NCBI GenBank assembly: GCA_963803975.1
Contig: CAWDOY010000012.1
Coordinates: 8,486 to 72,485, forward strand
Source: an uncultured delta proteobacterium
GTDB taxonomy: Bacteria > Desulfobacterota > WTBG01 > CAIYCZ01
Direction of reading: 5' to 3'
DNA length: 64,000 bases
Shown here: positions 16,652-51,223 of the stretch, in pieces
How the letters are laid out: the number at the start of each line of letters is the position of its first letter
Numbering within the stretch: the stretch's first letter is position 1
The notes under the pieces: generated by a model
The model's input: the letters and a program-made list of their open reading frames with translations, nothing else
Told to the model about the DNA's origin: nothing
Databases searched by the model: none
Program-made: the position numbers and the translations under genes

Positions 16652-16725
16652 TTTTCTGATAGTAGAACAGGGAGTCAGCCAGTCAGGCTGATTCCCTGTT
16701 TTGCTTCTGCCTCTCTGGAAGTCCC
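16619..16725 (+). repeat. 107-bp direct repeat, left copy (tRNA-Asp 3' end plus terminator)
   Basis: Aligns ungapped with 51503-51609 with 6 mismatches. Confidence 0.95.
16666..16702. terminator. Hairpin terminator downstream of the tRNA fragment
   Basis: AACAGGGAGTCAGCC-AGTCA-GGCTGATTCCCTGTT-TT. Confidence 0.7.
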
Positions 16726-17616
16726 TTTTTTGACGCTCCTGAGAAACTGCTCAAAATGATACCACTCAAGGGGGTGACGGCGGACCATGATTTCGAGCCT
16801 GTCGGCATACTGCTGGGCAGCCTGCTGTACGGCATCATGGCGCTGGCTGCGGGATGCGGGTTTGACTGCGCATGGCGGGAAGAGCGTGCAGTGATAGCTG
16901 TTTTTGCCACAGCGGTTTACAAAAAAGATAATCAGCGGTGCGCCTGAAAGCATGGCAAACAGAAACGGCGCCTCGGGAATGTGGACCTCATGCCCGAGAA
17001 ACCTCACCGCAACCGATCGCTGCGACTGGCTCCACAGCCGGTCACCGGTCATTGAAACAAAACCGCCGTCTTTTAAAAAATTAATTCCTTCCAGCGCATC
17101 AAAGGGCGAGGCTTCATCCTGCTTTGTCGTTATAATTTGAATACCATGCTGCGCAAGGTCCTGCTTCTGCAAGCGTTCTATCTGCTCGCCTTCCTTCTCT
17201 CCGAGATACAGAAGGAGTCGTATGGCAGGGCCATCAGCGCAACCGCCCAGATAGGCAGCGCCAAGCTCCCAGTTGCCCAGATGCGACATGAGCATGATGC
17301 CGCCGGTTCCATCACGCGCAATGTTATCAATATGCTCCCGTCCTTCAGCCGAATAGGTAATGGTTCCCGGCTTCCGCGCAACCCACCGGTCGAGAAAAAC
17401 CGTGGTAAAGTTGTGAAACTGCCGCCAGGCACACCAGAGATGATACGGAAAACCACGGGCGGGGAACAGGGCTTTATAGAAATTGACGCTTATTGCCACC
17501 CGCCGCGGAAACAGGATAAAATAACCCGTGGCCACACACCAGGCCATGGCACTAAAAAACCACGCGCCGGTGAAGGCTGAGATACACATCAGGCAGCGGT
17601 AAAAAAGTTCTTTCAT
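16675..17616 (-). CDS. LpxL-like (lipid A/lysophospholipid) acyltransferase
   Basis: GIMLMSHLGNWELG, VSMTGDR, VRFLGH, HPLEWYHF. The C-terminal tail reads into the att repeat. Confidence 0.85.
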   Translation of the reverse strand: MKELFYRCLMCISAFTGAWFFSAMAWCVATGYFILFPRRVAISVNFYKALFPARGFPYHLWCAWRQFHNFTTVFLDRWVARKPGTITYSAEGREHIDNIARDGTGGIMLMSHLGNWELGAAYLGGCADGPAIRLLLYLGEKEGEQIERLQKQDLAQHGIQIITTKQDEASPFDALEGINFLKDGGFVSMTGDRLWSQSQRSVAVRFLGHEVHIPEAPFLFAMLSGAPLIIFFVNRCGKNSYHCTLFPPCAVKPASRSQRHDAVQQAAQQYADRLEIMVRRHPLEWYHFEQFLRSVKKGTSREAEAKQGISLTG

Positions 17617-17637
17617 GATTCCTTGTGCATAATTTTT

Positions 17638-20709: not shown

Positions 20710-20715
20710 GACAGC

Positions 20716-21456: not shown

Positions 21457-21461
21457 GAGCT

Positions 21462-23175
21462 TCACCTCACCGCAGCGGGAGCAAAGGCCACGGCCCATGT
21501 GCCCGGCCCCGTATGCACGCCCGTCGTGAGAGACAACGGCCGCACCAGCAGTTCTGTGTTTGGAAAACGGCGCTGCACGGTTGCGGCTACTTCCTCAACA
21601 AAGCTGCGGTTGTCCGTGTACTGAAAAAGTATCAGGCCATAGGCCTCAGCCGGAAAAACTTCTGCGATGCGCTCAAGGGCAAACCGCACCTGCTCAGAGC
21701 GGTTTCTGACCATGCCGACCTTTTGCGCCCCGTCTTTTTGCGGGCTTATGACCGGTTTAAACTTCAGCATATCACCAAACAATGCCCCGGTTTTTGACAG
21801 CCTGCCGCCTGCGGCAAGATAGTGCAGCTGATCGATAAATATATACTCGCGTGCAAGCTCCAAAGCTGTTCGCGCGCATGTTTCAACCTCGCCGATGCCT
21901 AGTCGCATGCCGGGCACAGCGCGCCGCGCAGTGCACGGCAATTGCAAGCCGTCCTGATGCTGTGCCGGTGTCTATAATAGTGAAACGGTTTTCTGGATCA
22001 TGTTCCTGTTTCCAGCCAAGGGCGGTCTTAAAATTTCCCGTATAGACCGAACCAACGCACAGGTACAGCACGCTTGCATGCAGTTCGAGCGCTCCGGCGT
22101 AGTGCTGTCGCCGCTCATCCAGCGATGCCTGCGCCGTGGAGCAGGGAATGCCTGCGCGCATGGCTTTATACATGTCGGCAGGCGAGCAACAGGTTTCCGG
22201 CAGGCTCGTGTCGCCCATGGTTATATAGCTGTCAAGCAGGGCTATCCCCAGCATGGCAGCATCTTCGCGGGTGACGGAGCCTGCGGCATCCGTCATGATA
22301 TGGACGACAGAGGCTGAACCCGGTTCTGCAAACATCCCCGTCTGGGCCGCGAGATCATCATCGGCCCAGGCAACAATACGTCCGCTTGCGGCAAGCTCGC
22401 GTTGAGCCTTTTCACGGTCAGGTGCATGCAGGTGCACCTTGATATACTCACCGCTGCGCATGACAACAGTGCTTTCGCCCATATGCTGAAGCTTTGCTTC
22501 GGCGCTGCCGTCACACTTCAGCACCGCGTCGATACAGAAACCCGCGGCTGTTTCCCGGCTGAACGTGTCGGCTATGCGGAGGCATTCTTTAAAGCAGGCG
22601 CGGGCCGGAGAAAAGCACTGCTTCGTGCCGGCAAGGCAGCTGAAAAAACCGTCAAAAAAAAGATACATGCCCAGGGCTCCGGCATCGACAACATGGGCCT
22701 GCTCAAGCACCGGCTGCTGACAAACGGTGTCGGCAACCGCATGTTCAAGGGATTGAAGAAGAGCTTTCGTCCACGCGGCGTCTGCTTCGGATGGGATACA
22801 GCGGCACAGCTCAGCAAGCCGGTCAAAAAAACTCAGCATGGTGCCGGGCCGGGGCTCAGTCACCGCCCGGTATGCCGCATCTCTGCCGCGCTGCACGGTC
22901 GCGGCCCAATCCTGAAGCGATGCCATGCACGCGAACTCCTCCAGAAAGCGGGCGGCGATATTGCCTGAATTGCCGCGTGCCGCAAGCAGCAGGCTCCGGC
23001 AGAGCTCCCCGGTATCGGCATGCTCTTTTCGCAGCGGAGCAAGGCTTATAACAAGATTGCGGCCCGTGTCGCCGTCAGCCACGGGAAAGACATTGATCCG
23101 GTCCAGAAGCTGTGACCAGACCGTTACCGTTTCAGCGCCCGCGGCAAGGGCTTTGTAAAAACCGGGCCGTGTCAC
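21462..23175 (-). CDS. DAK2 (FakA-like)-DegV (FakB-like) fusion; frameshift near 21900
   Basis: LDRINVFPVADGDTGRNL, ARGNSG (DAK2); HIMTDAAGS, STAQAS, then in the next frame YLAAGGRLS..KPVIS..GVHTGPG (DegV). Confidence 0.85.
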
Positions 23176-23594
23176 GGCATCCCCAGCGCAGCGCGTATGG
23201 CTGCGGGTATCTCGAAGAGCATGTCCCCTTCGGGCATTTGCACCGCAACCTGCTCGGTCCTGCCTTTAACGCAAACTCTGCCGTCGGCCTTGAGCCTGAC
23301 TTCAAAGTCCACAACGAGCTTTTCCTTGCAGTCTGCAACGGTGGCCCTGCAGGTGAACTCGTCGCCGTATCGAAGGGGGTAGATATGCTTGGTGGCTGTT
23401 TTGATGATAGGGAAAACGCAATTGCTTTTTACATAAAATTCGTGCAGGTCTATGCCGACACTTCCCAGCAGGGCAGAGCGGGCGTCTTCAAAATATTTAA
23501 AATAGTTGCCGTGCCACACTATCTGCATGGGGTCAAGCTCGTAGAAGGCCACGGTATGCTCAATCTCAAAGCTCGGATGATGCTCGCGGCTCAT
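23172..23594 (-). CDS. Acyl-CoA/ACP thioesterase (4HBT/YbgC family)
   Basis: VAFYELDPMQIVWHGNYFKYFEDAR. Confidence 0.9.
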   Translation of the reverse strand: MSREHHPSFEIEHTVAFYELDPMQIVWHGNYFKYFEDARSALLGSVGIDLHEFYVKSNCVFPIIKTATKHIYPLRYGDEFTCRATVADCKEKLVVDFEVRLKADGRVCVKGRTEQVAVQMPEGDMLFEIPAAIRAALGMP

Positions 23595-25183
23595 GACTTT
23601 TGCACTCCTGCCAGCACTGCAAAGAGTTCGCCGCGGCCGATAGCCTGCACCATGGCTTCAATGTCGCGGTCAAGGGGGCGGTCGCACTCAAGGCGTGGTG
23701 AAACCAGGCGTATGCTTTTCACCAGAGCCTGAAGCCGTGGGCGCTTGTGCAGATTGCCCCGCAGCTGACAGGCCTGAGCAGCGGCCAGCAGATGAATGGC
23801 AAGCACACGCTCCACAAGCTCGCAGTTACGCCGGGCATCGCGGGCTGCAATGGTGCCCATGCTCACCTTGTCCTGATTATGGGATTCCGAGGAACGCGAG
23901 AATGAAGCGGCCGGCATGGTATTTTTCAGGGCCTCTGCGGCAAGGGCTGAGGCGCTGATGGACATGGCCTTGAAGCCGTGATGGAAAAAATGCTCATCTC
24001 CGGCAACACCCACCAGATCTTCGGGCAGCCCGCGGTTGAACTGAGGATGCACCAGCAGCAGTATCTGCCGGTCGGCCATGTCGGCAACCGAGGCAAGGGC
24101 AGCTTTCAGGCCGTCCATGGCAAATGCGATATGGCCGCCGTAAAAATTGCCGCTCATGAGGTGTTCGCCGGTTGCAGGGTCAAATATCGGATTGTCGTTT
24201 GAGCTGTTGGTCTCGATCTCAACCCACTGCTCAACCCATGCCAGGGCATCACACAGCACACCGGCAATCTGCGGGGTGCAGCGCACCGAATACGGGTCCT
24301 GCAGGGCATGGGGGCCGTCATCCTCCAGCGCGCGCACATCACTTTTTGCGGCAAGCAGGTGCTCGAGGCATCGGGCCACATACGCCTGCCCGCTGAATGG
24401 TTTCGCCCGGCTGATGGCAGGATGGAAATGGCACACCTTGCCCTTGAAAGCATGAACGGTAAGGGCCGTAGCGCACAGGGCTGCATGCAGTATGGAACGG
24501 GCACGCATAACAGACATAACAGCAATGCCGGTCATGGTGGAAGTGCCATTGACCATGGCAAGGGGCTCCTTCGGATCAAAGACATACGGGGCTATGCCGG
24601 CTTTTTTGAGCGCCAGACGAGCGCTCATGCGCCTGCCCTTATAAAAAGCCTCCCGCTCACCTGCCATGCATGCAGCCACATAGGACATGGGCGTGAGGTC
24701 ACCCGATGCTCCAACCGATCCTTCTCCCGGCACCACGGGCGTAACACCCTTATTGAGCATATCGGCCAGCTGCTGCAGCAGCGCCACGGATACTCCCGAA
24801 TAACCCGTTGCCAGGCAGAGCATGCGGCACAGCATGGCAGCACGGGTCTCTTCAATGCCTATGGGCTCGCCCGTACCGCAGCCGTGAAACGGCAGCGGGT
24901 TTGCGGTGGTGCGCAGGGCAGCATCTTTGGGCAGCCTTTTGCCGCAGGATTTGCCGAAGCCCGTATTCACGCCGTAAACTGCATCGCCCCTTTTGAGCGC
25001 CCGCTGCAGAAAAACCTGCGAACGCGCCATGCGAGCCCGAAACAGTTTCTGTGTGCTGAGCGCTACGTGTGCGCGGCCCTGTGCAACGAGCTGAATCTGC
25101 TCGCATGACAAAAGCCCCTGCCCGACGATAACAACATTATTTTTTGTCATATAAGAATTCCTGTTCGTAAGAGTAATCGTCAT
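23591..25183 (-). CDS. MIO-dependent aromatic amino-acid ammonia-lyase (HAL/PAL/TAL family)
   Basis: VYGVNTGFG, GSVGASGDL (ASG MIO motif), MVNGT, LQDPYSVRC, DNP, GNFYG, HNQDKVSMG. The true start may be the ATG at ~25150. Confidence 0.95.
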   Translation of the reverse strand: MTITLTNRNSYMTKNNVVIVGQGLLSCEQIQLVAQGRAHVALSTQKLFRARMARSQVFLQRALKRGDAVYGVNTGFGKSCGKRLPKDAALRTTANPLPFHGCGTGEPIGIEETRAAMLCRMLCLATGYSGVSVALLQQLADMLNKGVTPVVPGEGSVGASGDLTPMSYVAACMAGEREAFYKGRRMSARLALKKAGIAPYVFDPKEPLAMVNGTSTMTGIAVMSVMRARSILHAALCATALTVHAFKGKVCHFHPAISRAKPFSGQAYVARCLEHLLAAKSDVRALEDDGPHALQDPYSVRCTPQIAGVLCDALAWVEQWVEIETNSSNDNPIFDPATGEHLMSGNFYGGHIAFAMDGLKAALASVADMADRQILLLVHPQFNRGLPEDLVGVAGDEHFFHHGFKAMSISASALAAEALKNTMPAASFSRSSESHNQDKVSMGTIAARDARRNCELVERVLAIHLLAAAQACQLRGNLHKRPRLQALVKSIRLVSPRLECDRPLDRDIEAMVQAIGRGELFAVLAGVQKS

Positions 25184-26642: not shown

Positions 26643-27329
26643 CTACTTCGCATCACCCGCCTTTGCAGGCTCGGCACTGATGGGGCGCAGCTGCAGGCGG
26701 TACGGCTGTGGCTGCAGCCCCTGCAAAACAACAGTGCCCGGCAAGCCGCCGGCAGCTGCTGCGCCTTGTGCGGTGCGGGTAGCACCTGATCCGTTTTTAT
26801 ATTCCTGCAGCTCCCAGCTATTGTCAGGATGCACGATAACATCGATTGCCATGCCGTCGGCCAGGCCGTATCTGCAGATACTTGATCCATTATTCAATAT
26901 GCCGCATTGCTGCGGCTCACCCGCAGGAGGCAGCAGGAGAAACTGCACGTCACGCAACAATGCGCTCCTGAATTCGGGCCCGTCAAAAGGGGGGAGCGCC
27001 CGGTAGAGGGTGATCACATCATTGCGTGTGGAAGCGTCAAAGAGCAGCAGCCCTTCAATAGTCATAATGGCTGCCCTGACAGCTCGCCCTCCGGGGTCGA
27101 TGACCGTAATGCCTATGAGGGTCATTTTTTTGCCATCAGGCAGCTGCGCCTCTATGGCGTTGATAAAACGAGCCGGCGCGACGGGAAACGGCAGCCTGCA
27201 GCGCTCCCGGTGTTCAGGGCCCGCAGGATTAACAGGCATTGGCCGCTGCGATGATGCGCATGCGCACAGCAGAAGCGCTGAGACAACACAGCACCATCGC
27301 ACGTGTGCCTTTATTATAGCCGGCATCAC
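26643..27329 (-). CDS. Lipoprotein, DUF3261-like
   Basis: Lipobox LLCAC; TIEGLLLFDA, LLRDVQFLLL; next to the LolA-like gene, as in aryl-polyene clusters. Confidence 0.55.
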   Translation of the reverse strand: MMPAIIKAHVRWCCVVSALLLCACASSQRPMPVNPAGPEHRERCRLPFPVAPARFINAIEAQLPDGKKMTLIGITVIDPGGRAVRAAIMTIEGLLLFDASTRNDVITLYRALPPFDGPEFRSALLRDVQFLLLPPAGEPQQCGILNNGSSICRYGLADGMAIDVIVHPDNSWELQEYKNGSGATRTAQGAAAAGGLPGTVVLQGLQPQPYRLQLRPISAEPAKAGDAK

Positions 27330-27985
27330 GGTTTCCTGAAGAGCCCGTCTTCAAGCCGGGCATTGATCTTCACATCGGCAAAATCAAGGGTTGTGGTATT
27401 GCCCTCGCCTTCGCGTATGATGATTGATTGAATCATGCCCGGCCGGTCAGGCGCGGGGATAATCTCAATGCCTGAGATGATCTGCCCGAGGCTGCTGTCG
27501 CGGGGCCGCAGCTGAATCCGCGGCGCAGTACCCGCCAGCAGTTCGGCAGTAAAGCCCTGACTTTCGGTAAAACGGCCCGTGCTCCACAGCATTATCTCCT
27601 GCAGCATCACGCTTGTTGCCGCAGCGCCGATGCCCGCGTCTTCCGTCCAGCCGCTGTGCCCCTGCGTAAAACGCCTGCTTGTGCCCTGGTGCAGCAGAAG
27701 GACGCTTTTGACCGGCGCATCATAGGCCCAGCGTACGGAATCGGGCGCTTTGAAGCAGAAGGTGCCATGAGACACAAGCGGACTTGCCAGTATCTTCATG
27801 CGCTTTGTCTGCGTGAAGCGGGCGCTGATGGAGGAGACCTTTGCAGATTCCTTCCGTATGCTCTCCCAGGAGTCTGTCCAGCCGGCACAAAGAAAACCGG
27901 TGCAGAACAGCACCGCGATGAATCGTGCATGGTGCATTATATGGATTCCCTGCGGGCGCATGCAATCTCTCACTATGTTATTCAA
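27326..27985 (-). CDS. lolA: Outer-membrane lipoprotein carrier LolA-like protein
   Basis: SISARFTQTK..LVSHGTFCFKAPDSVRWAYDAP..EGNTTTLDF. The start is probably downstream, at ~27937. Confidence 0.85.
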   Translation of the reverse strand: MNNIVRDCMRPQGIHIMHHARFIAVLFCTGFLCAGWTDSWESIRKESAKVSSISARFTQTKRMKILASPLVSHGTFCFKAPDSVRWAYDAPVKSVLLLHQGTSRRFTQGHSGWTEDAGIGAAATSVMLQEIMLWSTGRFTESQGFTAELLAGTAPRIQLRPRDSSLGQIISGIEIIPAPDRPGMIQSIIIREGEGNTTTLDFADVKINARLEDGLFRKP

Positions 27986-28103: not shown

Positions 28104-28133
28104 GATTTTTATTTTTTCCATTTTCACCATTGC

Positions 28134-34990: not shown

Positions 34991-35050
34991 CTCTGTGAAC
35001 TAGGGTATTCTCCATAAATGATCCGCAGCCACATGCTAGCCGGTTCAGGG

Positions 35051-39369: not shown

Positions 39370-39409
39370 GAACCGGATTAATTTAAAGAATTTTTTTGTA
39401 AGCATCATA

Positions 39410-40673
39410 CTATGCCACGCGCCGCAGGACAATACAGGAATTGCACCCGCCGAAGCCAAAAGCATTTTTCAGCACATGCTCCTGCGCAAAGCTTCGCGCG
39501 CCTTCGGGCACGCAGTCAATCTCGATTTCCGGATCGGGCGTGTAATTGATGGTGGGCAGCAGCGTATCGCGCAGCATGCCCTCCATGGCAAATATCGTTT
39601 CAATGGCGCTTGAGGCGCCCATGGCATGGCCGGTCTGCGACTTGTTGGCGCTCACCGGCGGCACGCGATTGCCAAAGATCTCCGTAAGCGCATCGGCCTC
39701 GACCTTGTCGCCCACTTTGGTCGACGTGCCGTGGGCATTCACCGCGGCAATGTCAGCAGGCGCAAGGCCTGCATGCTCGATGCTCTGGCTGATGCAGCGC
39801 TTCACCGTGTCATAATTGGGCGCCACGAAATGATGGGCATCGGAGGTCATGGCCCAGCCTGCCATCTCGATTTTGGGCGCAAGGCCGTGGGCACGGGCAA
39901 AAGCCTTTGTGGCGATGATGACACAGCCCGCGCCTTCTGCCACCACAAATCCCCGGCGGTTTATTGAAAACGGACGGCTGGCATGTTCCGGCGGCTCATG
40001 CTCCTGCCCCTCCCGGGGATGGTAGGCGCCGTTCATGGTGGCAAATCCGCCGACAATGGGCTCGACCAGCGCAAAGTCAACCGCGCCGCAGATGACCACA
40101 TCAGCCATGCCCTGCTGCAGCATCATGGCGCCTGCTATCATGGATGTGCAGCCCGTGGCGCAGGCGGTTATGGTTGCCATGATGGGGCCGGTGGCGCCGG
40201 TCATAATGGACACTTTCCCCCCGACCATGTTGATGCAGGAGTTGGGGTTGGTGAAAGGATGGGGCAGCTTGTTCTTATCGTTCAAGAGCCTGTCGGCGCT
40301 GATGACCGCATCGAGGCCGCCCACAGCTGAGCTGAAGGTAATGCCCACGCGGGGAGCAAACTCAGGCGAGATAACGATGCCGCTTTTTTCAAGGGATCGG
40401 TGCACGGTCAAAAGACCGTATTTAAAGATGGGCGAGGTAAAGAGGGCCATATCGCGGGAGGCAAAATAGGGATAGGCCGAGAGATCAACTTCAGGCACCT
40501 GGCCTGCAATGGTCACGGGAAAGTTTTCACGAAGGGGAAAGCGCGTGAGGGGCCCGATGCCGCTTTGGCCCGCGCAGGCCCGCTGCCACTGCGCGGCAAG
40601 ATCGGTCCCGAGCGGAGAGACGGCATCGTAGCCGAGTATGACCGGGAGGCTTTCGCCTGCGGGCGGTTGACAT
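39410..40673 (-). CDS. fabF: Beta-ketoacyl-ACP synthase II; 1-nt indel just after the ATG at 40673
   Basis: The frame upstream of the ORF-track start is open (PVILGYDAVSPLG..GQSGIG); ITACATG, NAHGTST, KSQTGHAMGA, NAFGFGG. Confidence 0.9.
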
Positions 40674-40678
40674 ATGTC

Positions 40679-41677
40679 TCACCAGGGAATGAAGCGGTAG
40701 AGCTTGGCAAACATCTCGTACACCTCGATCCAGTTCTTGAGATCTTCAGCGCTCTTGAGATGCTCTTTCTTGTTGACCATGACCCAGCTCATGTGCGCCG
40801 CGCCGTCTTTGCAGGTTGAGCAGTCGCGCGTAGCTGATGTGCAGCAGCGGTGCATGGTCTTTAAGTCAGCGGCCCAGCGGATGAAGTGAATCAGGCGCTT
40901 TGGCTGCGGGTTGCGCGTGTCCACGGGTTCGGTCACCGAGGGGCATTCCATCCAGCCGAAGGGGCGGCCCATCATCATGCCCGTGGTGATGATCTGGTGA
41001 TAGTATTTGCAGGAAATGAGCGTTTCGGGATAGGTATCAAGCAGGCCATCCATCTCGGCGCGCACATCTTTGAGCTGCTGTTCATTCCACGAAAACCCGT
41101 CAACCTCCTCGTCATTTGACAGAAGCTGCAAATGCACTTTCAGCCCGACGTCTTGTATCTTTTTCACCATGCGCTCGATGCGGCCCACCTGTTTAGGGGT
41201 GATGGTGTAGAGATAGTAGGTATAGGGGTCGCCCGCATAATTGCGGCTTGAAACGGCAAAGGTATCTTTGCCGCGAAGAATTTTTTCATCCTCCTCATCG
41301 CCCCAGAGCGATATGCCCACCATCATGTCAGGAAACCGGTCGCGGGGCACCTTGATCTGGCCGTTGGTGGCGCAGTAGGTGGGCAGGCGCTGGTAGAAGG
41401 CATCGATGCGGTCCATGTAGAGCGTGGGCTCGCCGCCGATGAGAATGGCAAGGTTGACGCCGCGCTCTTTTTCCCGCTCCACGAAGGCCTCCCAGGCCGC
41501 AATGTCCATCTCCTCGGGCGCTGCCTGATCTTCATCGGATGAAAAAAAGAAGCAGCCCGTGCACCGCAGGTTGCAGCGGTTGGTCACATCGTAGATGGAG
41601 CTGCGGATATTGAGGCTTGATATGCGCTTGTAGCGTTCATACCAGGCCTTGTCGAGCATTGAGCTTATGAGTTGCAT
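40679..41677 (-). CDS. Radical SAM protein with Cys-rich C-terminus
   Basis: YDVTNRCNLRCTGCFF, LIGGEPTL, ATNG, ECPS..RCCTSATRDCSTC. ATG at 41677 is preferred over 41740. Confidence 0.9.
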   Translation of the reverse strand: MQLISSMLDKAWYERYKRISSLNIRSSIYDVTNRCNLRCTGCFFFSSDEDQAAPEEMDIAAWEAFVEREKERGVNLAILIGGEPTLYMDRIDAFYQRLPTYCATNGQIKVPRDRFPDMMVGISLWGDEEDEKILRGKDTFAVSSRNYAGDPYTYYLYTITPKQVGRIERMVKKIQDVGLKVHLQLLSNDEEVDGFSWNEQQLKDVRAEMDGLLDTYPETLISCKYYHQIITTGMMMGRPFGWMECPSVTEPVDTRNPQPKRLIHFIRWAADLKTMHRCCTSATRDCSTCKDGAAHMSWVMVNKKEHLKSAEDLKNWIEVYEMFAKLYRFIPW

Positions 41678-41727: not shown

Positions 41728-42802
41728 TTATGCCCCGCAACCTTGCGGCGGATCAACAGGCCCGCGGCAGAGGTTCTCCCCTTTTTCATACCCCGTGACC
41801 CAGACCGCCAGATAGGTGTCCACATAATCAAGCCATGCCTTGAACGTGTCCGGGTCGGTGGCATGGCGGTAAAGCTTTGAGGTCACCACGGCGCTGCCGG
41901 CAGCATAGTGCCTGCAATCAACGCAGTCCGTATCAGGCACACAGCAGGAGGCAGCGCGGTCCCAGGTGAGATCGGAGCGGTACTGCCGGAACGAGCGGCC
42001 AAGGCCGATATCGGTCGACGGGTTCATGCGCGGGTACGGGCATGCAGTAGAGCGCATGCAGCCCGAGCTTGTGCGTATGGGCTACAGCGCTGTAGGGCGA
42101 AAAGAGCACCTGCCGGGGATAGCGCTCAAGAAGTTCAAGCATTGTCTCCCGCGTCCGTGCAAGGGTTTCCTCCGTGTGCCGCAAGAGGCCATCATATGCC
42201 TCGGGTGCTGAAAACATATTAAATGTCACCTTGCAGCCATTGGCGCTCAGCTGCTCAATCACCGGGGCCGCCTCGTCGATATTGTCGCGCGTAAAGGTAT
42301 AGACAAACACGGCCCGGCTGTCGCCCCGGTAATTATCTATCTGTTTTTCAAGCATATGCTTCTGCTTGCGCACCCGCAGGCTGGTGGCGTCATTGCCCCA
42401 GACCGACACGTGAATCTTGTAACCAACGGATGCCTCGATGCGCTTTACACCATTGGTGGCGATGCAGCCAAGCGGTATCTCATCATAGCAGGCCTGCAAA
42501 AGCCCGGGCACAAGGGCAGGCTCGGCGCCGGCCAGCACCACGAAGGTGATGCCACGGGCTTTTTCCTGCCGCATCAGTTCGCGCCACACCGTCGGGTCTG
42601 CGTTGTCAATGGCAAACTGCTTGTCGCCGGCATAGTAGTAGCAGCCGTCGCAGCGTATATTGCAGCGGTTTGTCATGTCATAGGTCGATTCGCGCAGGAA
42701 GAAATAGTTGCGTACCTGCTCCCAGCGCTTGCGAACCGCAGGCTCGGCAAGCAGGTCGGCAAATCTGTATTTCGGGGTCGAGGAGGGCTGTGCAGCGCTC
42801 AT
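41728..42802 (-). CDS. Radical SAM protein, paralog of 40679-41677; frameshift near 42047
   Basis: YDMTNRCNIRCDGCYY, LAGAEPAL, IATNG; second frame CPYP..SCCVPDTDCVDC. Confidence 0.88.
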
Positions 42803-42816: not shown

Positions 42817-43089
42817 TCAGGCTTTTGCCTGAAGCCGCTCCTGGATGTAGGCTGCTATCAGGCGTATGGCGCGCAGTTTGGGGTAGTCGTCCTCATCGAT
42901 TTTGATGCCGTACTCATCCTGCAGCACCAGCACGATGGTGGCAAGGTCCATGCTGTCGATGCCGATTTCATCCACAAGATCAAGATCAGGATCAAACGTT
43001 TCCGCCGTGATATCCTGCAGCTTCAGCTCGGTGATTATGATTTGCGCGACACGCAGTTGAAGCTCCTTTTCATTAATACCAGCAGACAT
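42817..43089 (-). CDS. Acyl carrier protein
   Basis: IGIDSMDLATI; RBS GGAGG. Confidence 0.92.
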   Translation of the reverse strand: MSAGINEKELQLRVAQIIITELKLQDITAETFDPDLDLVDEIGIDSMDLATIVLVLQDEYGIKIDEDDYPKLRAIRLIAAYIQERLQAKA

Positions 43090-43128: not shown

Positions 43129-43504
43129 TTATTCAGCAAGCCGCTCGACAGTAAGCGTGCCGGTGCAGGCCGCCTCGCCGCCCAGCAGAATCGTGAAATT
43201 GTAGGCAGATACCGCTTTCTTTCTGTTCGCGCTTTAGCGCCAGTGTAAAGGGTTCCTCAGGCCTGACAGGCTTTTTAAACCGTACCCGCTTCACAGCCTT
43301 CAGCCGTATGCGCTTTCCCTCGTGCGCTTCTTTCTGCCGCGCAGCATCAAAGGCCATGGCGATCATGGCAATGCCGGGCAGTATCGGCTGACCGGGGAAA
43401 TGCCCGTCAAACCAGGGGGAGCCCCACGGCGCAGTTGCGAGAGCCTCCAGCCGGTCAGGCTCATCGTTGGAACCACATTCAAGCGTATGCCATTTGGAAA
43501 GCAT
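43129..43504 (-). CDS. FabA/FabZ-like dehydratase (ApeI-like); frameshift near 43207
   Basis: SPWFDGHFPGQPILPGIA, VRFKKPVRP; corrected C-terminus AYNFTILLGGEAACTGTL. Confidence 0.85.
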
Positions 43505-43722
43505 ATATCTTAACAAAATCTGACCTGATAGGGCAGATCATTCAGTGACTGTGTTCTTAATTATTAATAAAATGTATATGAATCGACCGTGTAGAGCCTG
43601 TGTCATCCTTCAAAGGATCACCTGTGCTGTTGCAAAACAATCATTAGGTGTGCGCAAGTATATGAAAAAACATGCGCACAGTCAATTGAATTGCTGTCAG
43701 ACGCTCGATTTACGAAGCTTTT

Positions 43723-44543
43723 TCAGCCAGCCGGCTGCATGACGGGCCTGCCGATCAGTTGTTCAAGCGACACCGGCGCAAGATTTTTTTCTGCAAGCCC
43801 TGCAAGAAGCGCTTCGATCTCCTGCAGCCACATATCGACGGAGGCAGTCTCCATTTGGCATACAGTCATGCAGCAGGATAATATCATCAGGCCGGACTTT
43901 TTTCAGTATCCTTTCAGCCAAGCCCTCGAAGCGGCGATTGCCGGCGTCAAAGCCGCGGCAGCTGAAGGTGACACAATGCAAGCCCTGTTGTTTTAAAATG
44001 CCTCCCAGCTTCGGATTGGTGATTCCTGCGGGCGGCCGGAAAACAAGCGGCCGTATTCCAAAGGCGCTTATGGCCTCCTGGGCCATGCGGATTTCCGACG
44101 CAATGTGTCTGCCGGGACCGCAGCATTAACAGCACGTCATGGCAATAGGAATGATTGCCCACATCATGGCCTCTGGCGATAATCTCCCGCATAAGATCCG
44201 GATGGCCCTGCGCTTTTTCCCCGATGACGAAAAAGGTCGCTTTCGCCTTGTTTTTCTCCAGCAGTTCCAGAATCCGGGGGGTTGCGGCAGGATCAGGACC
44301 GTCATCAAATGTCAGGGCAACCATAGTGCCGCCCGTACATCCGCGGCTGATGACCGGCAAAAAGAATCCAGCCTGCGGGAAAAACGGCGCGGCCAGATAG
44401 CACGCAACAAAGATACCCAGCGGCAGCACCCAGAGCCACTCATTGACCATTGCCAGAACTATTGCCGCACCGGCGCACAGCAGGGCGATTTTCACGACCG
44501 GCAGCAGTGAAGATGAAGAAGGGGCTGATTTTTGCATATCCAT
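43723..44543 (-). CDS. Membrane-anchored polysaccharide deacetylase (CE4/NodB); frameshifts near 44100 and 43846
   Basis: ALTFDDGP, ATFFVIG, GNHSYCH; then FRPPAG, IILLHD; then WLQEIEALL..PVSLEQL. Confidence 0.88.
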
Positions 44544-46717
44544 TAACCCAGGATCTCCACAGCGGTTATGCACTGGCCCAGCCCCAGCAGCAAAATTCCC
44601 CGGCCGTGCAGGGATCCCGGCGCTGCACGGCACAGCCCTGCGGGCAACTCTCCCGCCCTGACACAGTCAACTGCTATGACGGCTGCCACAGCCGATGCGG
44701 AGGCGAACTCGCCGGTAATTTCCCGGTAATCGATAACCGGGCAGTCGCAGCCCGCGGCGTTTATAAAAAGCGCAAGCTGCTCCCTGCCCTTGTCGCGCGA
44801 GGCAGCCGGAATGCCTGCAAAGACAGCCCCGTACTTTTTGCTGATATTTTCAGACCCGCCCAGCACCAGCATGAGGTGTTGCATCGTCCGGTCACTGCAG
44901 GGATCATTGGAAATAAAAAGCGGCGCGATGCGAACTCCCCTTGCCGCATCAATTGGCTGAAGCAGCAGGCCGCAACCGCCGTCGGAGGCAATCGAGGCGC
45001 AGGCCGCGGAGGCGTCAAACAGCGGGGTCAATTTTTCATGGTATTCATCGGCGCCGATGACCATGGTCGTACCCGGGGCCTCATGGGCGATTAATCCTGC
45101 GCTGAAAAGCGCCTGTTCAAATGAATAATCGCCATCGGTCAGGGTAATGTTCGGGCCCTTTGCCTGAAAGTGGATTGCCACCTGCCCTGCGGGGGCATTA
45201 TGCACGGAGCCGATAAAATCAATGGGGCTGGTGAAACGCTCTTCCGTTGAAAAAAGCCGCGAAAGAAAATCATGTGTTTCAGACAGCCCTCCCCAGCCGG
45301 TGCCAAAAAAAACTGAAGCTGGCGGTTCTGCACAGCCTGAGCTGCCGTGGGCGGCAATAGCCAGAGATAAAGCCATGCGCGGCAGCCGCTTGAGCCGCCG
45401 CACGGCACTTTCATTGAGACCCGCCATAATAGCCTTCGCCGGGGCCATGCCGCTGATGCCTGCCCCCTCACGCAGACCTGCAAGCGTCTGCGCAAAATTG
45501 CCTGCGCCGGTGAGGCAGGAGCTGCCCAGAACGGCAAAGGCGGTGCTGCGGCTTTTGGTTTGCACGGGTACGCCGGTTGCGGCGGGTTTGCTGAGCACGA
45601 TTGATGCATTGTTGCCGCCAAAGCCGAAAGCATTGGAAAGCACTGTCGATACAGGCCTGCGAAGCGGCGAGCTGAGCGGGATCAGCTGCAGCGCAGGATC
45701 AGGCAGGCAGCATCCGGTGTTTGCCGGCAGTATGCCATGGACAATACTTAAAACGGAAATGGCCGCATTGATCGCGCCTGCTGCGCCCAGTGTATGCCCC
45801 ACCGCGCCCTTGATGGATGATGCGGGCGGAAGCGGCATAGTACGGAAAAGGGCCTGCAGCGCCCGGGCCTCAGCCGCATCATTGTCAGGTGTTCCCGTGC
45901 CGTGCAGATTTATATAATCAATATCTGAGGCTGCGCAGCCTGCACCGGCAAGAGCCTCGCGCATGGCTTGCACTGCCCCTGCACCGTCAGGATGGGGCGC
46001 GGCCGGGTGATAGGCATCACAGGTCAGTCCGACAGCCAGCACCTCGGCCAGTGCCCCTGCAGGGGGATCAGTCGCAGCCTCTAAAAGAAGCATGGCAGCC
46101 CCCTCCCCGACCGACATGCCGCGTCGATCCTTGTCAAAGGGGCGGGCGCCTGCCGGATCGACAAGCTGCAGAGAGTTGAATCCGTAGTAGGTTAAGCGGC
46201 ACAGGCCGTCCACGCCTCCGGCAAGCACGCGCCGGGCTTTGCCGCTTTTCAAAAGCTCCAAAGCTATTTTTAAGGCCACCATGCCGGATGAGCAGGCAGT
46301 CGATACGGTCAGCACCGGGCCGTGGCACCCAAGAGCGCCAGCCAGGTAGTGGGCCACGGTGCCAGTGCCATGATAGCGAAACTTCTCTGGATCAGGAGCA
46401 TTGTTTTTTAAAAAAAGTTCGCTTGCAGGCATGCCGCCGGTGGTGACCCCTATGACCATGGCATCCGGAGGGCCATGGGAAACGGCCATCGCCTCACGCG
46501 CTGCAATAAGCGCAAGGCCGTGGGTTCGCGGAACAGTGCCGGGGATGAAGGATGTGACTTCACCTGATGGCAGAGGGGGCTCGACTGATGAGGGAAAAAG
46601 AGCAAGCGGCGCAAGTCCGCATGCCGCTGTTTCAAGAGCTGCAATGGTTTGAGAAGCGTTTTCGCCGATGGGGCTTATGATCCCCAGCGAGGTAACAAAA
46701 ACCCGCATGCTGCTCAA
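44543..46717 (-). CDS. Ketosynthase fused to a chain-length-factor-like KS domain
   Basis: N-half: STACSSG, NLHGTGT, KGAVGHTLGAAG, SNAFGFGG. C-half: RRLKRLPRMAL, GTGWG, SPIDFIGSVHNAPAG, with no catalytic Cys (TDGDYSFEQAL). Confidence 0.9.
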   Translation of the reverse strand: MSSMRVFVTSLGIISPIGENASQTIAALETAACGLAPLALFPSSVEPPLPSGEVTSFIPGTVPRTHGLALIAAREAMAVSHGPPDAMVIGVTTGGMPASELFLKNNAPDPEKFRYHGTGTVAHYLAGALGCHGPVLTVSTACSSGMVALKIALELLKSGKARRVLAGGVDGLCRLTYYGFNSLQLVDPAGARPFDKDRRGMSVGEGAAMLLLEAATDPPAGALAEVLAVGLTCDAYHPAAPHPDGAGAVQAMREALAGAGCAASDIDYINLHGTGTPDNDAAEARALQALFRTMPLPPASSIKGAVGHTLGAAGAINAAISVLSIVHGILPANTGCCLPDPALQLIPLSSPLRRPVSTVLSNAFGFGGNNASIVLSKPAATGVPVQTKSRSTAFAVLGSSCLTGAGNFAQTLAGLREGAGISGMAPAKAIMAGLNESAVRRLKRLPRMALSLAIAAHGSSGCAEPPASVFFGTGWGGLSETHDFLSRLFSTEERFTSPIDFIGSVHNAPAGQVAIHFQAKGPNITLTDGDYSFEQALFSAGLIAHEAPGTTMVIGADEYHEKLTPLFDASAACASIASDGGCGLLLQPIDAARGVRIAPLFISNDPCSDRTMQHLMLVLGGSENISKKYGAVFAGIPAASRDKGREQLALFINAAGCDCPVIDYREITGEFASASAVAAVIAVDCVRAGELPAGLCRAAPGSLHGRGILLLGLGQCITAVEILG

Positions 46718-46995
46718 GGGCTCGTCTCCGGCCGGTTCTGGTGTATATATTCCGCCAGGGCTTTCAGTGAGGCAAAGACCCTGATGCCAAGCTCCTTGTT
46801 GTCGATCCGAAGTCCATAATCCTTTTCGATCATCATCACCAGCTCAAGCACATCTATGGAGTCAAGCCCCAGCTCGCCGCCCACAAGCCGGGCTTCGGCA
46901 TCGATACTGTCGGGGGCGACGCTTATGAGATTGAGCGTAGCGACTATTTTGACTTTGAGTTCGCCTATGAGTTCTTCCATTGCGCCTTCCATCAT
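46714..46995 (-). CDS. Acyl carrier protein
   Basis: LGLDSIDVLEL. Confidence 0.93.
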   Translation of the reverse strand: MMEGAMEELIGELKVKIVATLNLISVAPDSIDAEARLVGGELGLDSIDVLELVMMIEKDYGLRIDNKELGIRVFASLKALAEYIHQNRPETSP

Positions 46996-46999
46996 CGCA

Positions 47000-47395
47000 T
47001 CACTCGACTTTCACAACATCTGCCGGCCGCTGCGGTCCTCCGGCAGATAGCTTTTCACATGCTTTTTTAATCGACCATTTCATGAATATCGTGGCGTAAT
47101 CCTTTCCTACAATATACATCCCCACCAGAAAAACCACATGTGCAGTTCCATACGTAAGCGGCCCGCCGATGATAAGGACCAGGGGCTGCTTGAGATACAG
47201 GGAGAGAAAGCCGAAGAAGGCAACCGCCGGCCAGCCGATGACATAGCTGAACAGCACCAGTACAATACCGAACTGCTCACGGGCCGTGGGCTTCCGCTTC
47301 AGACAGCGCAGGTCAAGCTCCTCCTGCAGAATGCGCTGAAAAAACTGCTTCTGTACAAGATTTTTCCGGCAATTTTGAACCAGCTTTTTAATCAC
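47000..47395 (-). CDS. Small membrane protein of unknown function
   Basis: Two hydrophobic segments; co-oriented first gene of the operon. Confidence 0.6.
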   Translation of the reverse strand: MIKKLVQNCRKNLVQKQFFQRILQEELDLRCLKRKPTAREQFGIVLVLFSYVIGWPAVAFFGFLSLYLKQPLVLIIGGPLTYGTAHVVFLVGMYIVGKDYATIFMKWSIKKACEKLSAGGPQRPADVVKVE

Positions 47396-47602: not shown

Positions 47603-48796
47603 TTACCCCTTTGCGGTCATGAAAGCGTCGACTATCACGTCGATTTCCGCCACCAGGCGCGCCGCTTCGTCGCGATCGTAGCGCACAGCGCGCTCGGCAT
47701 AGCGATGGCAGTAGCGACAGTCATCGCAGAAGGTCTCCGCGCATTGGATTTCCCGGAAACCCTCTAAAAAATCCGCAAGCATTGCGTTGTCGATGAAGAC
47801 GTTGAGTGCCAGCAGGCGCTGCCGCAACCTGAACATTCGCAGTGTCAGGCGCCGCTCTTCCGTGTCGAGCTGGAACAGGCTTTTGCGGCTCTGCTCCTCG
47901 ATGCTTGGGTGGAATCCGTTAGGATCTCCCAGCAGCTCGAGGGAGAGAATATCAAGCAGGTTTCCGTCGTAACGCCGGGAAGCGTATGCCTTTGTGGCAC
48001 GCAAGAGCCATGCTGTCGAGCGCGATCGATCAATGATCTTAAACTCCTCGACACCCAGGGCCTCGTACAGGTGTAAGTCCTCTGGACGGATCCACCGGCT
48101 CGCGAGGAAGAGCTCTGGCTGCACCAATCGCCGGCGGGTACACTGCCATAGGTAAGAATCAAGCAGGGCGTGCGTTTGTTTGCCGCCCTGATTCTCCTGG
48201 GAGGCGTGCCCCACGCTGCATGCGTGCTCGGCGAGGTAATGGCAATGATAGATGCATGATATGTTCGCGAAGAGCACGATGCCGCACGAGAGGTTTGCGC
48301 GGATGCGCTCAAGCGCTGGGAAGTCACGGTTAAACTCACTGTATGGCAGGATCAGCGGATCGACGCCAAGGGATTCCTGGTACTTCAGTCTGGGCAGATT
48401 GGTGGGCCAACTGAGCACACTTCCCCGGATGCTCAATTCCGGGTAGTTGCGCCGAACCAGCGCCACAAGCGCTAAGTTCGAGATCGACACGTTGTCAACC
48501 CCAAGTTCAACTAACCGCCCGATAAACGCGAGCAGGCGCTCTTTGCCCTCCTGCGTCTGCTCAAGATTTCCCAGGCACGGTGCATTGAGCAGGTAACTGA
48601 ACGACAAGCCACGCTTGTGGGCTGCCTGGATGTAAGCGGCGGCGGCATCAAGGTCCACTGAAGGCAGCACGGAGCCCGCCCTGCCTCCACCCACGAGGTC
48701 ATAGGGCAGCTTTGCATAGACCGAAGTCACCTCGGGAATTTGCGCGAGTCCGTCAAGAAGTTCGATGTCCCAATTCGCAGCAACGCTCAATTTCAT
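47603..48796 (-). CDS. Peptidase U32 family protein (Fe-S, UbiU/V/RlhA-like superfamily)
   Basis: GGGR, SYLLNAPCLGN, FNRDF, ANISCIYHC, WQC, WIRPEDL, FKIIDR; C-terminal CAETFCDDCRYC. Confidence 0.85.
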   Translation of the reverse strand: MKLSVAANWDIELLDGLAQIPEVTSVYAKLPYDLVGGGRAGSVLPSVDLDAAAAYIQAAHKRGLSFSYLLNAPCLGNLEQTQEGKERLLAFIGRLVELGVDNVSISNLALVALVRRNYPELSIRGSVLSWPTNLPRLKYQESLGVDPLILPYSEFNRDFPALERIRANLSCGIVLFANISCIYHCHYLAEHACSVGHASQENQGGKQTHALLDSYLWQCTRRRLVQPELFLASRWIRPEDLHLYEALGVEEFKIIDRSRSTAWLLRATKAYASRRYDGNLLDILSLELLGDPNGFHPSIEEQSRKSLFQLDTEERRLTLRMFRLRQRLLALNVFIDNAMLADFLEGFREIQCAETFCDDCRYCHRYAERAVRYDRDEAARLVAEIDVIVDAFMTAKG

Positions 48797-48818
48797 GGCC
48801 GTTCTCCAGAAGCGCGGA

Positions 48819-49481
48819 TCATACCGGCTTAATTCCCGTCACTCGCAAACCGAGTGCTGTTTCGACAACCTCGCATCCGGCGAGTTCCGTCATGTTGAGT
48901 AAAGCCTTTACCTCTGCCATGGTGTAGGCAGCGCCGATTGAGGCTCGGAGACTTTCCAGGATCAGTTCGGACTTCACCCTTTGCTCGAGGAAGTTGCAGG
49001 CCGAGCGTGACAGGTCCCGGCGAAGATCGGACACGTATAATCTTCCGCCGGGCTTCAGGACCCTCCAAAGCTCGGTGAAGATCGTACCTGGATTGAGCCA
49101 CTCATGCAGCGAGCGGCTGGTAAAGACCGCGTCGAAGGCATTGTCCTCAAAGGGTATTGCCGCCGCGGAGCCAAGGAGTTGTTCAACGCGGTCGGCGAGT
49201 CCCAGTTCCCGCGCGTGATTCCTGGCTATCGCGACCATGTCCGGGCTTATGTCAAGACCGACGAGGCGGGTATCCCTTGTTTGCAGCAACCATTCCAGCC
49301 CGAGATAACCGGGTCCCGATCCGACCTCCAGCGCAAATCCACTCACAATGCCATTGAGCAGGAGATCCCCGGTCTCAAGCCATCCCTGCTCTCGGAGAGA
49401 TGCCTGCATCCGGTCATAGTTTTCGGCATAGGCACGACCTGAAATCGTATGGTTTGTCTCCGGAACCCTTGGTTTTGTCAT
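48819..49481 (-). CDS. Class I SAM-dependent methyltransferase
   Basis: ALEVGSGPG, GLDISPDM, IPFEDNAFDAV, SLHEW, RVLKPGG. Confidence 0.92.
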   Translation of the reverse strand: MTKPRVPETNHTISGRAYAENYDRMQASLREQGWLETGDLLLNGIVSGFALEVGSGPGYLGLEWLLQTRDTRLVGLDISPDMVAIARNHARELGLADRVEQLLGSAAAIPFEDNAFDAVFTSRSLHEWLNPGTIFTELWRVLKPGGRLYVSDLRRDLSRSACNFLEQRVKSELILESLRASIGAAYTMAEVKALLNMTELAGCEVVETALGLRVTGIKPV

Positions 49482-49744
49482 TGGTCTCGACTGAGAGGAA
49501 ACTCGCTTTGGGATGAGGCGAATATAGGACGAGGGCTGTTGTGTGTCAATAAAAAGTTCGCCGCAAGATATGGGCAGGGGTTATTCAGACCAAAAACAGC
49601 GGGGCGATTAAAACACACATCGTTCTTGCAAATTGAATTCCGCTGGCATACAACAAACGTATGATTCAGGAAGGCGCCGGTAGGTGCGCAGGAGCGCGAC
49701 ATAATCTAAGCAGTGAAACCGTGCGAACGGATCACAGGGTATTT

Positions 49745-51223
49745 ATGAAGTTGTTTTCAACAATCCTTTTACTCATCGTATGCAGCTGCACTATGGGCTG
49801 TTCGGCCTCAAAAACCCTGTTTTTCCCCGATGTCGCGCTTTCCCGCACGCCACAGGAAATCCGCTATGACGTGAACGGCAATGGCAGGGCCGACTTTGCG
49901 CTGCAGGCCGATGCAGACAACCGGGCGACCACGCTTGCCTATGCCCATGAACAAGACGGACGATATGCCCGAATCTACCGCATAAATGACTATGCACCAG
50001 ACAGTGTGCCGCACCTGATTATTCTGCTGGATTCAATCCCCTATCAGTGCGTGCTTGATGTTTATAATGCCGGCCGTTTCAGCTGGTTCCCGCCGCCCCA
50101 GAAGGTGATCGCTCCCTTCCCGACGATGAGCGCCGTTATTTTCAACCAGATTCTTCAGGCCCCTCCGCTTGCGGGAACAAACAATTATTTCTACGATCAG
50201 CGCACCAATCGGATCTGTAATCGCTTCTGGGATGCTGCCACGGGCGGCAAGACCACCTGGCAGCGCTACCTGCACTATAACGCTGACTATATGAGGGAAG
50301 GGCTGGGGTTTATAAACACGCGGAAGACATTCCGCCGCGAATTGGAAAGCATCAAGCAGGCGTTCGACCAAAGCCCCGATCGAGTAACAATTGTTTATGT
50401 CGTCAGCTCCGCAGCCATGGCCTGCAAATATGGCAGGCAGGGCATCGATGACTGCCTGCGCGAAGTAGAGCGTCTGTGCCTTCAGCTTTTATGGGAGCGT
50501 CAGGGCGCCCTTAAAATTTCCATACTGGCTGACCACGGCCACAACCTCACGCCGTCACAGTTTGTATCTATAAAAAATATTTTAAGCGAGGCAGGATTTG
50601 CCGTGAGGGACAAAATCCAGTCGGATACCGATATCGTTATCGACACGGAGGGGCTGGTCACCTATGCGGGCATACATACGCGACGACCGGCGGCTGTTGC
50701 CGACGTGCTGCTGCAGAAGCCGCAAACGCAGCTTGCCCTGTATATGGACGGCGAACGGGTTATCGTGCGTGACAACAGGGGCTCGGCAGCAATAGAAAAA
50801 AAGGGCGGCAAAATACGCTATGTCGCCATAGACCGGGATGTGCTGAACTACCAGCCGGTAGTTACTTTGCTGACCATGTCCGGAAAGGCGGATGCGGAAG
50901 GCTTTGCATCATCAGACGACTGGTTTATTGCAACGGTTGACCATGAATGGCCGAATGCCCCCCCCCGGATATGGGATGCCTTTCACGGCATTGTCGTTTG
51001 CCCGTCCGACCTGATGATAACCCTCAAGGATGGATACGTGAGCGGGTATCCCCTCTTTAAAGCCTTTATCGACATGGCCTCTTCACATGGAGGGCTCAAC
51101 CAGATGAGCAGCGCGACATTTCTGCTGAGCATGACCGGACGGGCAACCCGGCCGTTGCGAAGCGGGGAAGTCCTGCAGACGATCGAGCCTGGTTATATGC
51201 CCGCCATCCGCCCGGGAAAATAA
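49745..51223 (+). CDS. Lipoprotein of the alkaline-phosphatase/nucleotide-pyrophosphatase superfamily
   Basis: Signal/lipobox ..TMGC from ATG 49745; LIILLDS, PFPTMS, ILADHGH, SSHGGL. Confidence 0.65.
   Translation: MKLFSTILLLIVCSCTMGCSASKTLFFPDVALSRTPQEIRYDVNGNGRADFALQADADNRATTLAYAHEQDGRYARIYRINDYAPDSVPHLIILLDSIPYQCVLDVYNAGRFSWFPPPQKVIAPFPTMSAVIFNQILQAPPLAGTNNYFYDQRTNRICNRFWDAATGGKTTWQRYLHYNADYMREGLGFINTRKTFRRELESIKQAFDQSPDRVTIVYVVSSAAMACKYGRQGIDDCLREVERLCLQLLWERQGALKISILADHGHNLTPSQFVSIKNILSEAGFAVRDKIQSDTDIVIDTEGLVTYAGIHTRRPAAVADVLLQKPQTQLALYMDGERVIVRDNRGSAAIEKKGGKIRYVAIDRDVLNYQPVVTLLTMSGKADAEGFASSDDWFIATVDHEWPNAPPRIWDAFHGIVVCPSDLMITLKDGYVSGYPLFKAFIDMASSHGGLNQMSSATFLLSMTGRATRPLRSGEVLQTIEPGYMPAIRPGK

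Follow-up and report, generated by a model that had tools for sequence, protein, structure and literature searches.

What does a cluster of fatty-acid, polyketide and radical S-adenosylmethionine (SAM) genes make, and which of its genes belong together, on a 64,000-nucleotide stretch (hereafter the window) of contig CAWDOY010000012.1 from an uncultured delta proteobacterium (assembly GCA_963803975.1)? Open reading frame (ORF) calling, together with Pfam/NCBIfam scans of 39 window proteins, placed 32 genes at 16675-51223, about 35 kb. We found that this region is a real, sharply bounded and widely shared lipid pathway of anaerobes, arranged around an uncharacterised pair of radical SAM enzymes, rSAM_A and rSAM_B. 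An earlier note, made from the letters of the sequence, had listed four ketosynthases (KSs), a chain-length-factor (CLF)-like domain, three acyl carrier proteins (ACPs), four radical SAM enzymes and associated genes. These scans recovered that inventory in full, and further revealed a FakA-FakB fusion, a 228-aa lipoprotein-like gene, a 131-aa membrane protein, a 520-aa phosphodiesterase-like protein and a 107-bp repeat, which the note had left unnamed.

To define the core of the cluster we used relatives of rSAM_B, at least 565 of which were confirmed among at least 589 pattern matches. The locus tallies given here refer to the best 80, many of them on short contigs, among which the order DH-ACP2-rSAM_A-rSAM_B-FabF1-FabF2-TE2-DH (DH, dehydratase; TE, thioesterase) recurred. 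The core genes in the window, with the number of the 80 loci that carry each, are as follows.

43133..43516, minus strand: ApeI/FabZ-like dehydratase (DH_ApeI), PF22818; 65/80
42817..43089, minus strand: ACP2, PF00550; 70/80
41728..42802, minus strand: rSAM_A, about 27% identical to its paralog rSAM_B, frameshift near 42030 in the assembly; 77/80
40679..41677, minus strand: rSAM_B, B12-independent radical SAM enzyme with a C..CC..CxxC auxiliary motif
39410..40660, minus strand: FabF1 ketosynthase, sister clade to FabF2; 77/80
38103..39372, minus strand: FabF2 ketosynthase, split at 38577 by an apparent assembly insertion; 65/80
37621..38070, minus strand: hot-dog thioesterase TE2, TIGR00051 81.9 (above the cut-off of 68.7); 61/80
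34148..35008, minus strand: polyketide synthase (PKS)-type double hot-dog dehydratase (PKS-DH), PF21089, translation with HxxxGxxxxP and DxxxH motifs; 53/80

The 80 relatives were 73-92% identical and came from Syntrophales, Desulfobacterales (Desulfosarcina widdelii, D. variabilis, Desulfosudis), Spirochaetota, and single metagenome-assembled genomes of Actinomycetota and Planctomycetota. In the full-length subset, comprising 37 loci of at least 20 kb, 29 had at least two genes of aryl-polyene type within 10 kb. When 300 genomes of the phylum were searched, 23 carried rSAM_B; orthologs of the ApeR-like KS occurred in 21 of these carriers and in none of the other genomes, and the clade of B12-binding radical SAM 1 (21 genomes), the fused KS-CLF (11) and the 4-methylideneimidazole-5-one (MIO) aromatic amino-acid lyase (9) were likewise confined to carriers. 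The poor co-conservation that the earlier note had named as grounds for abandoning its proposal was thus not observed in the 80 loci, the 37 full-length loci or the 300 genomes, and these tallies bear out its view that the chain-building, anchoring and export genes of aryl-polyene type form one anaerobe pathway with the radical SAM/FabF block. The cluster is one co-inherited pathway, common to many sediment anaerobes.

The aryl branch is optional, since the MIO lyase was found in 9/23 and the fused KS-CLF in 11/23 carriers (both together in 4), and since D. widdelii and D. variabilis lack orthologs of both; the rSAM and FabF pairs are the constant part. The lyase and KS-CLF, which the earlier note counted in an aryl-polyene/flexirubin core, are present in the window but optional in the family. 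Its link between FabF and radical SAM genes and the anammox set holds as kinship (see below), but the constant core is a pair of radical SAM enzymes without B12 domains and a FabF pair, rather than a B12-binding radical SAM with a KS/CLF. In the two Desulfosarcina species the pathway is divided between two loci, the second of which retains TE1-FakAB-GT2-LpxL-ACP3-ApeR-PlsC, and some carriers without a fused KS-CLF ortholog, these two included, have a more distant KS pair elsewhere. Genome G121, from another family, contains nearly the full gene set in rearranged order. A sister type of cluster, without the rSAM_A/B-FabF1/2 core, was found in G292, G233, G224 and G167 (4 of 18 mapped in full, a fifth in part).

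Two of the four radical SAM enzymes of the window carry B12-binding domains and two, rSAM_A and rSAM_B, do not. Both members of the latter pair keep CxxxCxxC and a C-terminal C..CC..CxxC arrangement (CC-x4-5-CxxC), and ACP2 lies directly upstream of rSAM_A. No curated family fitted rSAM_A, rSAM_B or 15 distant homologs. The structure model (pLDDT 91) placed the enzyme in the SPASM/twitch group, with loose matches to BlsE, ChlB and anSME (TM score 0.53-0.56). The CxxxCxxC motif, the predicted fold and the C-terminal cysteines for an auxiliary cluster, itself a prediction, agree with this assignment. The pair shares its fold and C-terminal cysteine cluster with BlsE, ChlB, anSME, SkfB and the lipid-coupling Tes, but differs from SPASM/twitch enzymes in its low similarity (at most 21% identity, TM score at most 0.56), in occurring as tandem paralogs beside an ACP and in having no curated family. 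A quick tree built on 71 KS rows, without the frameshifted FabF2 of the window, separated FabF1 and FabF2 from housekeeping FabF as sister clades (SH-aLRT 100), and nearly all orthologs of both kept the Cys and the two His residues. The same triad was read in the window translations of FabF1 (TACATG/HGTST/GH), FabF2 (GACASG/HGTST/GH), the ApeR-like KS (TACTTS/HATGT/GH) and the fused KS (TACSSG/HGTGT/GH). In two relatives other genes stand between FabF1 and FabF2, namely a TylF-like methyltransferase (L116:11556-12248, G013) and an Na+/H+ antiporter (L108:14584-16596, G043). The source genome (G000) has two further KS pairs, at C14:52151-54971 and C20:17456-20491.

A profile search recovered a wider rSAM family of 425 representatives at E values up to 1e-10. 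One member is fused to TubC_N and a thioesterase (P0158) and another to an AMP-binding fragment (P0215), and plasmid copies adjoin ACP-TauD-nonribosomal peptide synthetase or halogenase-ACP-thioesterase genes. One Burkholderia plasmid (CP110394, L129:7032-17106) combines a halogenase, two ACPs, an adenylation domain, an acyl-homoserine lactone synthase, a PaaI-like protein, a wider-family rSAM and a thioesterase.

The remaining genes of the cluster are given below; GT2 and CE4 denote glycosyltransferase family 2 and carbohydrate esterase family 4.

16675..17616, minus strand: LpxL-like acyltransferase, PF03279
17638..20709, minus strand: MMPL/RND exporter fused to a methyltransferase domain, PF03176 and PF13649
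20716..21498, minus strand: GT2 glycosyltransferase, PF00535
21462..23175, minus strand: FakA-FakB (DAK2 and DegV) fatty acid kinase fusion (FakAB), PF02734, PF21645 and PF02645; split by an apparent assembly insertion
23172..23594, minus strand: hot-dog thioesterase TE1, PF13279; TIGR00051 below cut-off
23591..25183, minus strand: MIO aromatic amino-acid lyase (optional module), PF00221, 506 bits
25372..26634, minus strand: B12-binding radical SAM 1, PF02310, CxxxCxxC; clade (identity of at least 66%) confined to carriers, 21 genomes
26643..27329, minus strand: lipoprotein-like gene, 228 aa, adjoining LolA, no Pfam match; 14/37 full-length loci
27326..27985, minus strand: LolA-like carrier, PF03548; LolA2_flexi 71/125 bits
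28134..28862, minus strand: FabG ketoreductase, NF004200 309.7 (above the cut-off of 273)
28912..29370, minus strand: ApeP-like dehydratase, weak PF22817 match (7e-5)
29485..30843, plus strand: AMP-dependent acyl/aryl ligase, PF00501
31060..32562, plus strand: B12-binding radical SAM 2 (optional), PF02310 and PF04055; 11/37 full-length loci
32631..34106, minus strand: phytoene-dehydrogenase-like FAD oxidoreductase (optional), PF01593, CrtD/CrtI far below cut-off; 13/37 loci
35023..35821, minus strand: PlsC-like acyltransferase, PF01553; apparent extra base at 35242
35835..37067, minus strand: ApeR-like ketosynthase, best PDB match 7F27 (A. baumannii ApeR), 1.8e-92
37224..37484, minus strand: ACP3, PF00550, co-travelling with the ApeR-like KS and PlsC
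43735..44633, minus strand: CE4 polysaccharide-deacetylase-like protein, PF01522, apparent extra base at 44106; 28/37 loci
44543..46717, minus strand: fused KS-CLF, ApeO/ApeC-like (optional), PF00109, PF02801 and, for the C-terminal CLF-like domain, PF13723; PDB matches 9S5H, 6QSP, 7F28
46714..46995, minus strand: ACP1, NF006617 74.2 (above the cut-off of 70)
47000..47395, minus strand: 131-aa membrane protein, no family; 20/37 loci
47603..48796, minus strand: U32-family protein (accessory), PF01136, 27 bits; only in G014 among mapped regions
48819..49481, minus strand: class I methyltransferase (accessory), PF08241; 84% in G014
49661..51223, plus strand: 520-aa phosphodiesterase-like protein (accessory), no Pfam match; 85% in G014

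The U32, stand-alone methyltransferase and phosphodiesterase-like genes, which lie within the interval of the earlier note, were confined to the window and its near relative G014 and occurred in 0/37 full-length loci; look-alikes of the last in the atlas carried PF01663 in 11% of members, which is a lead only. FakA-FakB is one ORF of 559-584 aa in G057, G139 and G259. Orthologs of the PKS-type dehydratase matched PF14765 and PF01648 and are fused to a phosphopantetheinyl transferase (PPTase) in many relatives; a PPTase, fused or adjacent, occurred in 25/80 and PlsY in 36/80 related loci, and the window has neither. In D. widdelii 2Fe-2S and RACo corrinoid-reactivator domains are joined to an ortholog of the AMP ligase (L093:13678-16884), which lies close to the cluster that bears the B12-binding radical SAM.

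Comparison with known systems revealed partial likeness to three of them. The cluster shares with the aryl polyene (ape) clusters of E. coli, Xenorhabdus and Acinetobacter the ApeO/C-like KS-CLF, the ApeR-like KS, FabG, ApeI/ApeP-like dehydratases, ligase, thioesterase, acyltransferases, GT2, MMPL and LolA, along with ACPs. It differs from them by the third ACP, the FabF and rSAM pairs, the PKS-type dehydratase, the B12-binding radical SAM enzymes and FakAB, and by a KS-CLF that is fused and, unlike a KS-CLF retained throughout a family, optional. The fused protein ranked 9S5H first among PDB entries, with ApeO second and third, and PRK09185 and PRK09116 were below cut-off. With the flexirubin cluster of Chitinophaga and Flavobacterium it has in common an MIO lyase, CoA ligase, several KSs, CE4, LolA, glycosyltransferase and exporter; it differs in its optional lyase, in the absence of DarB, and in FlxA, FlxB and LolA2_flexi matches that are all below cut-off. 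The lyase reached 285/700 bits against the FlxA model, and motif-based prediction of substrates failed on FlxA itself. A flexirubin-type cluster was rejected, DarB (NF005293) being above cut-off in 0/5 genomes (best score, 43.5/450).

Finally, the cluster is kin, judged by its gene set, to the type II fatty-acid synthesis (FASII) islands of Kuenenia (kuste3335-3352), Desulfotalea psychrophila and Geobacter, which are marked by TIGR04072 and likewise hold a glycosyltransferase, a phytoene-desaturase-like gene, ACPs, FabG, ligase, FabFs, CE4, a lipoprotein and radical SAM enzymes. This kinship, proposed in the earlier note, is strengthened by TIGR04072-type B12-binding radical SAM enzymes in 49/80 related loci; of four full-length cases scored, three (G041, G259, G277) exceed the cut-off. 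The two window enzymes scored 39.8 and 92.7 and the best of the genome 318.7, against a cut-off of 360. Two TIGR04072-like genes just below cut-off lie outside lipid clusters in G000 (C2:40018-41271 and C29:40627-41865). The sister clusters in G292, G233, G224 and G167 have the Kuenenia-type gene set. Anammox cluster I comprises a B12-binding radical SAM and a pair of FabF and catalytically dead FabF; identity with it was rejected, as FabF1 and FabF2 are catalytically complete and the core radical SAM enzymes are B12-independent. In the parts of the literature compared, which include bioRxiv 10.64898/2026.05.19.726425, PMC13459092, PMC4790861, PMC8253772, PMC8358021 and PMC3992019, we found no description of the DH-ACP2-rSAM_A-rSAM_B-FabF1-FabF2 core and no assigned product, in line with the earlier note.

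Gene content, motifs, co-inheritance, the duplication of both pairs, fold class and island borders were observed directly, and from them we infer each chemical step of a three-ACP type II fatty-acid/polyketide pathway, the product of which is likely a membrane lipid. FabF1/FabF2 and two dehydratases probably build an unsaturated chain on ACP2, because KSs, FabG and two kinds of dehydratase are present and no enoyl-reductase family was matched among the 39 window proteins scanned. The chain would then be reworked by rSAM_A/rSAM_B in an oxygen-independent oxidative radical step, most likely the formation of a C-C bond by ring closure or chain coupling. Auxiliary clusters of such radical SAM enzymes accept an electron in oxidative reactions, and a four-cysteine auxiliary cluster suits radical steps of that kind. 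TE2 may free the acid, which FakA-FakB would re-activate as acyl-phosphate; the FakAB/PlsY acyl-phosphate route leads to glycerolipids. PlsY (in relatives), PlsC, the LpxL-like acyltransferase and GT2 could load the chain on a glycerol or glycolipid anchor, with further chains supplied perhaps by ACP3/ApeR-like KS and ACP1/KS-CLF. The B12-binding radical SAM enzymes may add methyl groups or further rings, and the MIO lyase would give an aryl starter solely in the minority of carriers that possess it. MMPL, LolA and the lipoprotein would carry the product to the outer membrane, as proposed for aryl polyenes. We tentatively prefer this scheme, in which radical C-C chemistry independent of oxygen acts on an unsaturated chain bound to an ACP, followed by release, FakAB re-activation, anchor acylation and export, with nearly as much belief as doubt.

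Several observations weigh against the C-C scheme. The 66% identity cut for B12-binding radical SAM 1 was chosen after the gap in scores was visible, the 23 carriers represent about 12 genera and are non-independent draws, and the window lacks both a cluster PlsY and a TIGR04072 enzyme, which 36/80 and 49/80 relatives have. Sequence, moreover, cannot separate C-C formation from desaturation. The genomic evidence is identical for an oxygen-independent acyl-ACP desaturase making polyunsaturated or polyene chains without new rings, in line with the extension of FASII suggested by Rattray et al. 2009; PMC2649909 proposes that such clusters make polyunsaturated lipids. Single-copy homologs in aerobes adjoin O2-dependent oxidases (TauD, Rieske, PaaA/AurF-like), which also speaks for a desaturase. 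However, cycles of KS, FabG and DH without a reductase already yield double bonds, which would make two further radical enzymes redundant, and the conservation of rSAM_B across phyla (71-92%) suggests a more specific step; we consider a desaturase rather unlikely. The closest solved folds include the sugar-acting enzymes BlsE, the top match, and SpeY, and an ACP profile matched 0/60 non-core loci of the wider family, many of them short, so that the family is not generally ACP-linked. Recurrent neighbours in the 26 non-core loci scanned were MBOAT (9), GNAT (5), LuxI (4), TPR/hydrolase (10) and some sugar enzymes. These findings, with GT2 and GDP-mannose dehydratase genes beside wider-family members and GT2 and CE4 in the cluster itself, would suit an rSAM pair that oxidises, decarboxylates or epimerises the anchor lipid at its sugar or polar head group, the chains being ordinary or polyene. 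This seems improbable to us, as the pair is fixed between ACP2 and FabF1 whereas GT2, CE4 and LpxL are mobile, even megabases off.

A flexirubin- or aryl-polyene-like pigment, for which the FabF and rSAM pairs would build an anaerobic substitute for the DarA/DarB dialkylresorcinol partner, would account for the flexirubin-like list of MIO lyase, ligase, KS-CLF, CE4, acyltransferase, LolA, glycosyltransferase and exporter and for the ApeO- and ApeR-like KSs; with DarB below cut-off in 5/5 carriers, any partner ring needs other enzymes. Nevertheless, the scarcity of the MIO lyase and KS-CLF among carriers and the absence of both orthologs from the two Desulfosarcina species, although these have the more distant KS pair, argue against it, and FakAB and PlsY point to glycerolipid acylation; a pigment is in our judgement quite unlikely. 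That the island makes ladderanes is very improbable indeed. TIGR04072 enzymes in relatives, the phytoene-dehydrogenase-like gene and the FabF pair recall them, but anammox cluster I has a B12-binding radical SAM and one dead-triad FabF, while FabF1 and FabF2 have complete triads and the core radical SAM enzymes have no B12 domain; according to PMC2649909, no ladderanes were found in D. psychrophila.

The borders of the cluster are marked by two att-like repeats.

16607..16725, plus strand: left att-like repeat, 3' part of tRNA-Asp(GTC) and shared downstream sequence
51503..51609, plus strand: right att-like repeat, partner copy of the left repeat

The direct repeat (107 bp, 94% identity; 16619-16725 and 51503-51609) contains the tRNA-Asp(GTC) 3' end and encloses the interval of the earlier note almost exactly. 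The intact tRNA-Asp(GTC) matched by the left repeat sits on contig C17 of the source genome, and GC content is 56.3% inside the island as compared with 50.5% in the whole genome. An rSAM_B ortholog was absent from the three closer genomes searched, G001 (same genus, 91% complete), G002 and G003 (same family), and orthologs 76-93% identical occurred in 4 genomes from another family of the order; the whole cluster is present in identical gene order in G014. The region is likely an island gained by horizontal transfer. Tending against such an origin, an integrase was absent from contig C12; because of this, and because no intact tRNA lies within the 64-kb window, terminal or otherwise, the region reads as a stranded island. 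Near-identical DNA was found in freshwater and sediment metagenomes from 16 studies.

Left of the island, a minus-strand gene run at 1646-15655 with lower GC (47.6%) adjoins a TetR/FadR-like regulator and includes, as recognised by eye, a second exporter of RND/MMPL appearance and genes resembling FAD/Fe-S oxidoreductases. A 166-aa secreted-looking protein at 15894-16394, with no Pfam match, has at least 7 paralogous matches elsewhere in the genome. Intergenic repeats at 25190-25375, 27985-28134 and 49481-49660 gave 11, 40 and 25 blast matches in the genome, respectively.

Frame changes relative to intact orthologs affect seven genes (FakAB, PKS-DH, PlsC, FabF2, rSAM_A, DH_ApeI and CE4). In comparison with short-read contigs, one-base deletions relative to the window were seen at 34288, 35242 and 38577 in 3 or 4 of 4 runs, the extra bases in PlsC (35242) and FabF2 (38577) being absent from 4/4; the extra base in CE4 (44106) was absent from 3/4 and that in FakAB (21901/21903) from 2/4 runs (X1, X20). 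These five sites look like assembly insertions, since independent short-read contigs lack the extra base. The comparison considered 12 of 54 indel rows, among which neither the rSAM_A nor the DH_ApeI site falls; in 74/80 related loci rSAM_A forms an ORF of nearly full length. Split ORFs outside the island, at 56359-58306 and 62860-63890, probably reflect assembly indels of the same kind.

Clusters resembling those for ladderanes have been recorded since 2009 in bacteria other than the anammox group, with no product assigned (PMC2649909; PMC9902471). One such cluster family is now delimited and its constant core named, an enzyme pair without a name being present in about 8% of the sampled genomes of the phylum (23/300) and in other phyla. 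It is possible, though we find it doubtful, that rSAM_A/rSAM_B found a new class of B12-independent radical enzymes for ring closure in, or coupling of, acyl chains that a dedicated FabF pair makes on an ACP, and that a ring-bearing or chain-bridged membrane lipid marks a large guild to which sulfate reducers, syntrophs and sediment spirochaetes belong. The lipid could serve as a sediment biomarker. The pathway is present in reduced form in two cultured species of Desulfosarcina, so that product and chemistry are directly testable, and if the ring or coupling reading is true, Desulfosarcina would offer a culturable model for the type of radical ring closure in acyl chains that is sought for ladderanes.

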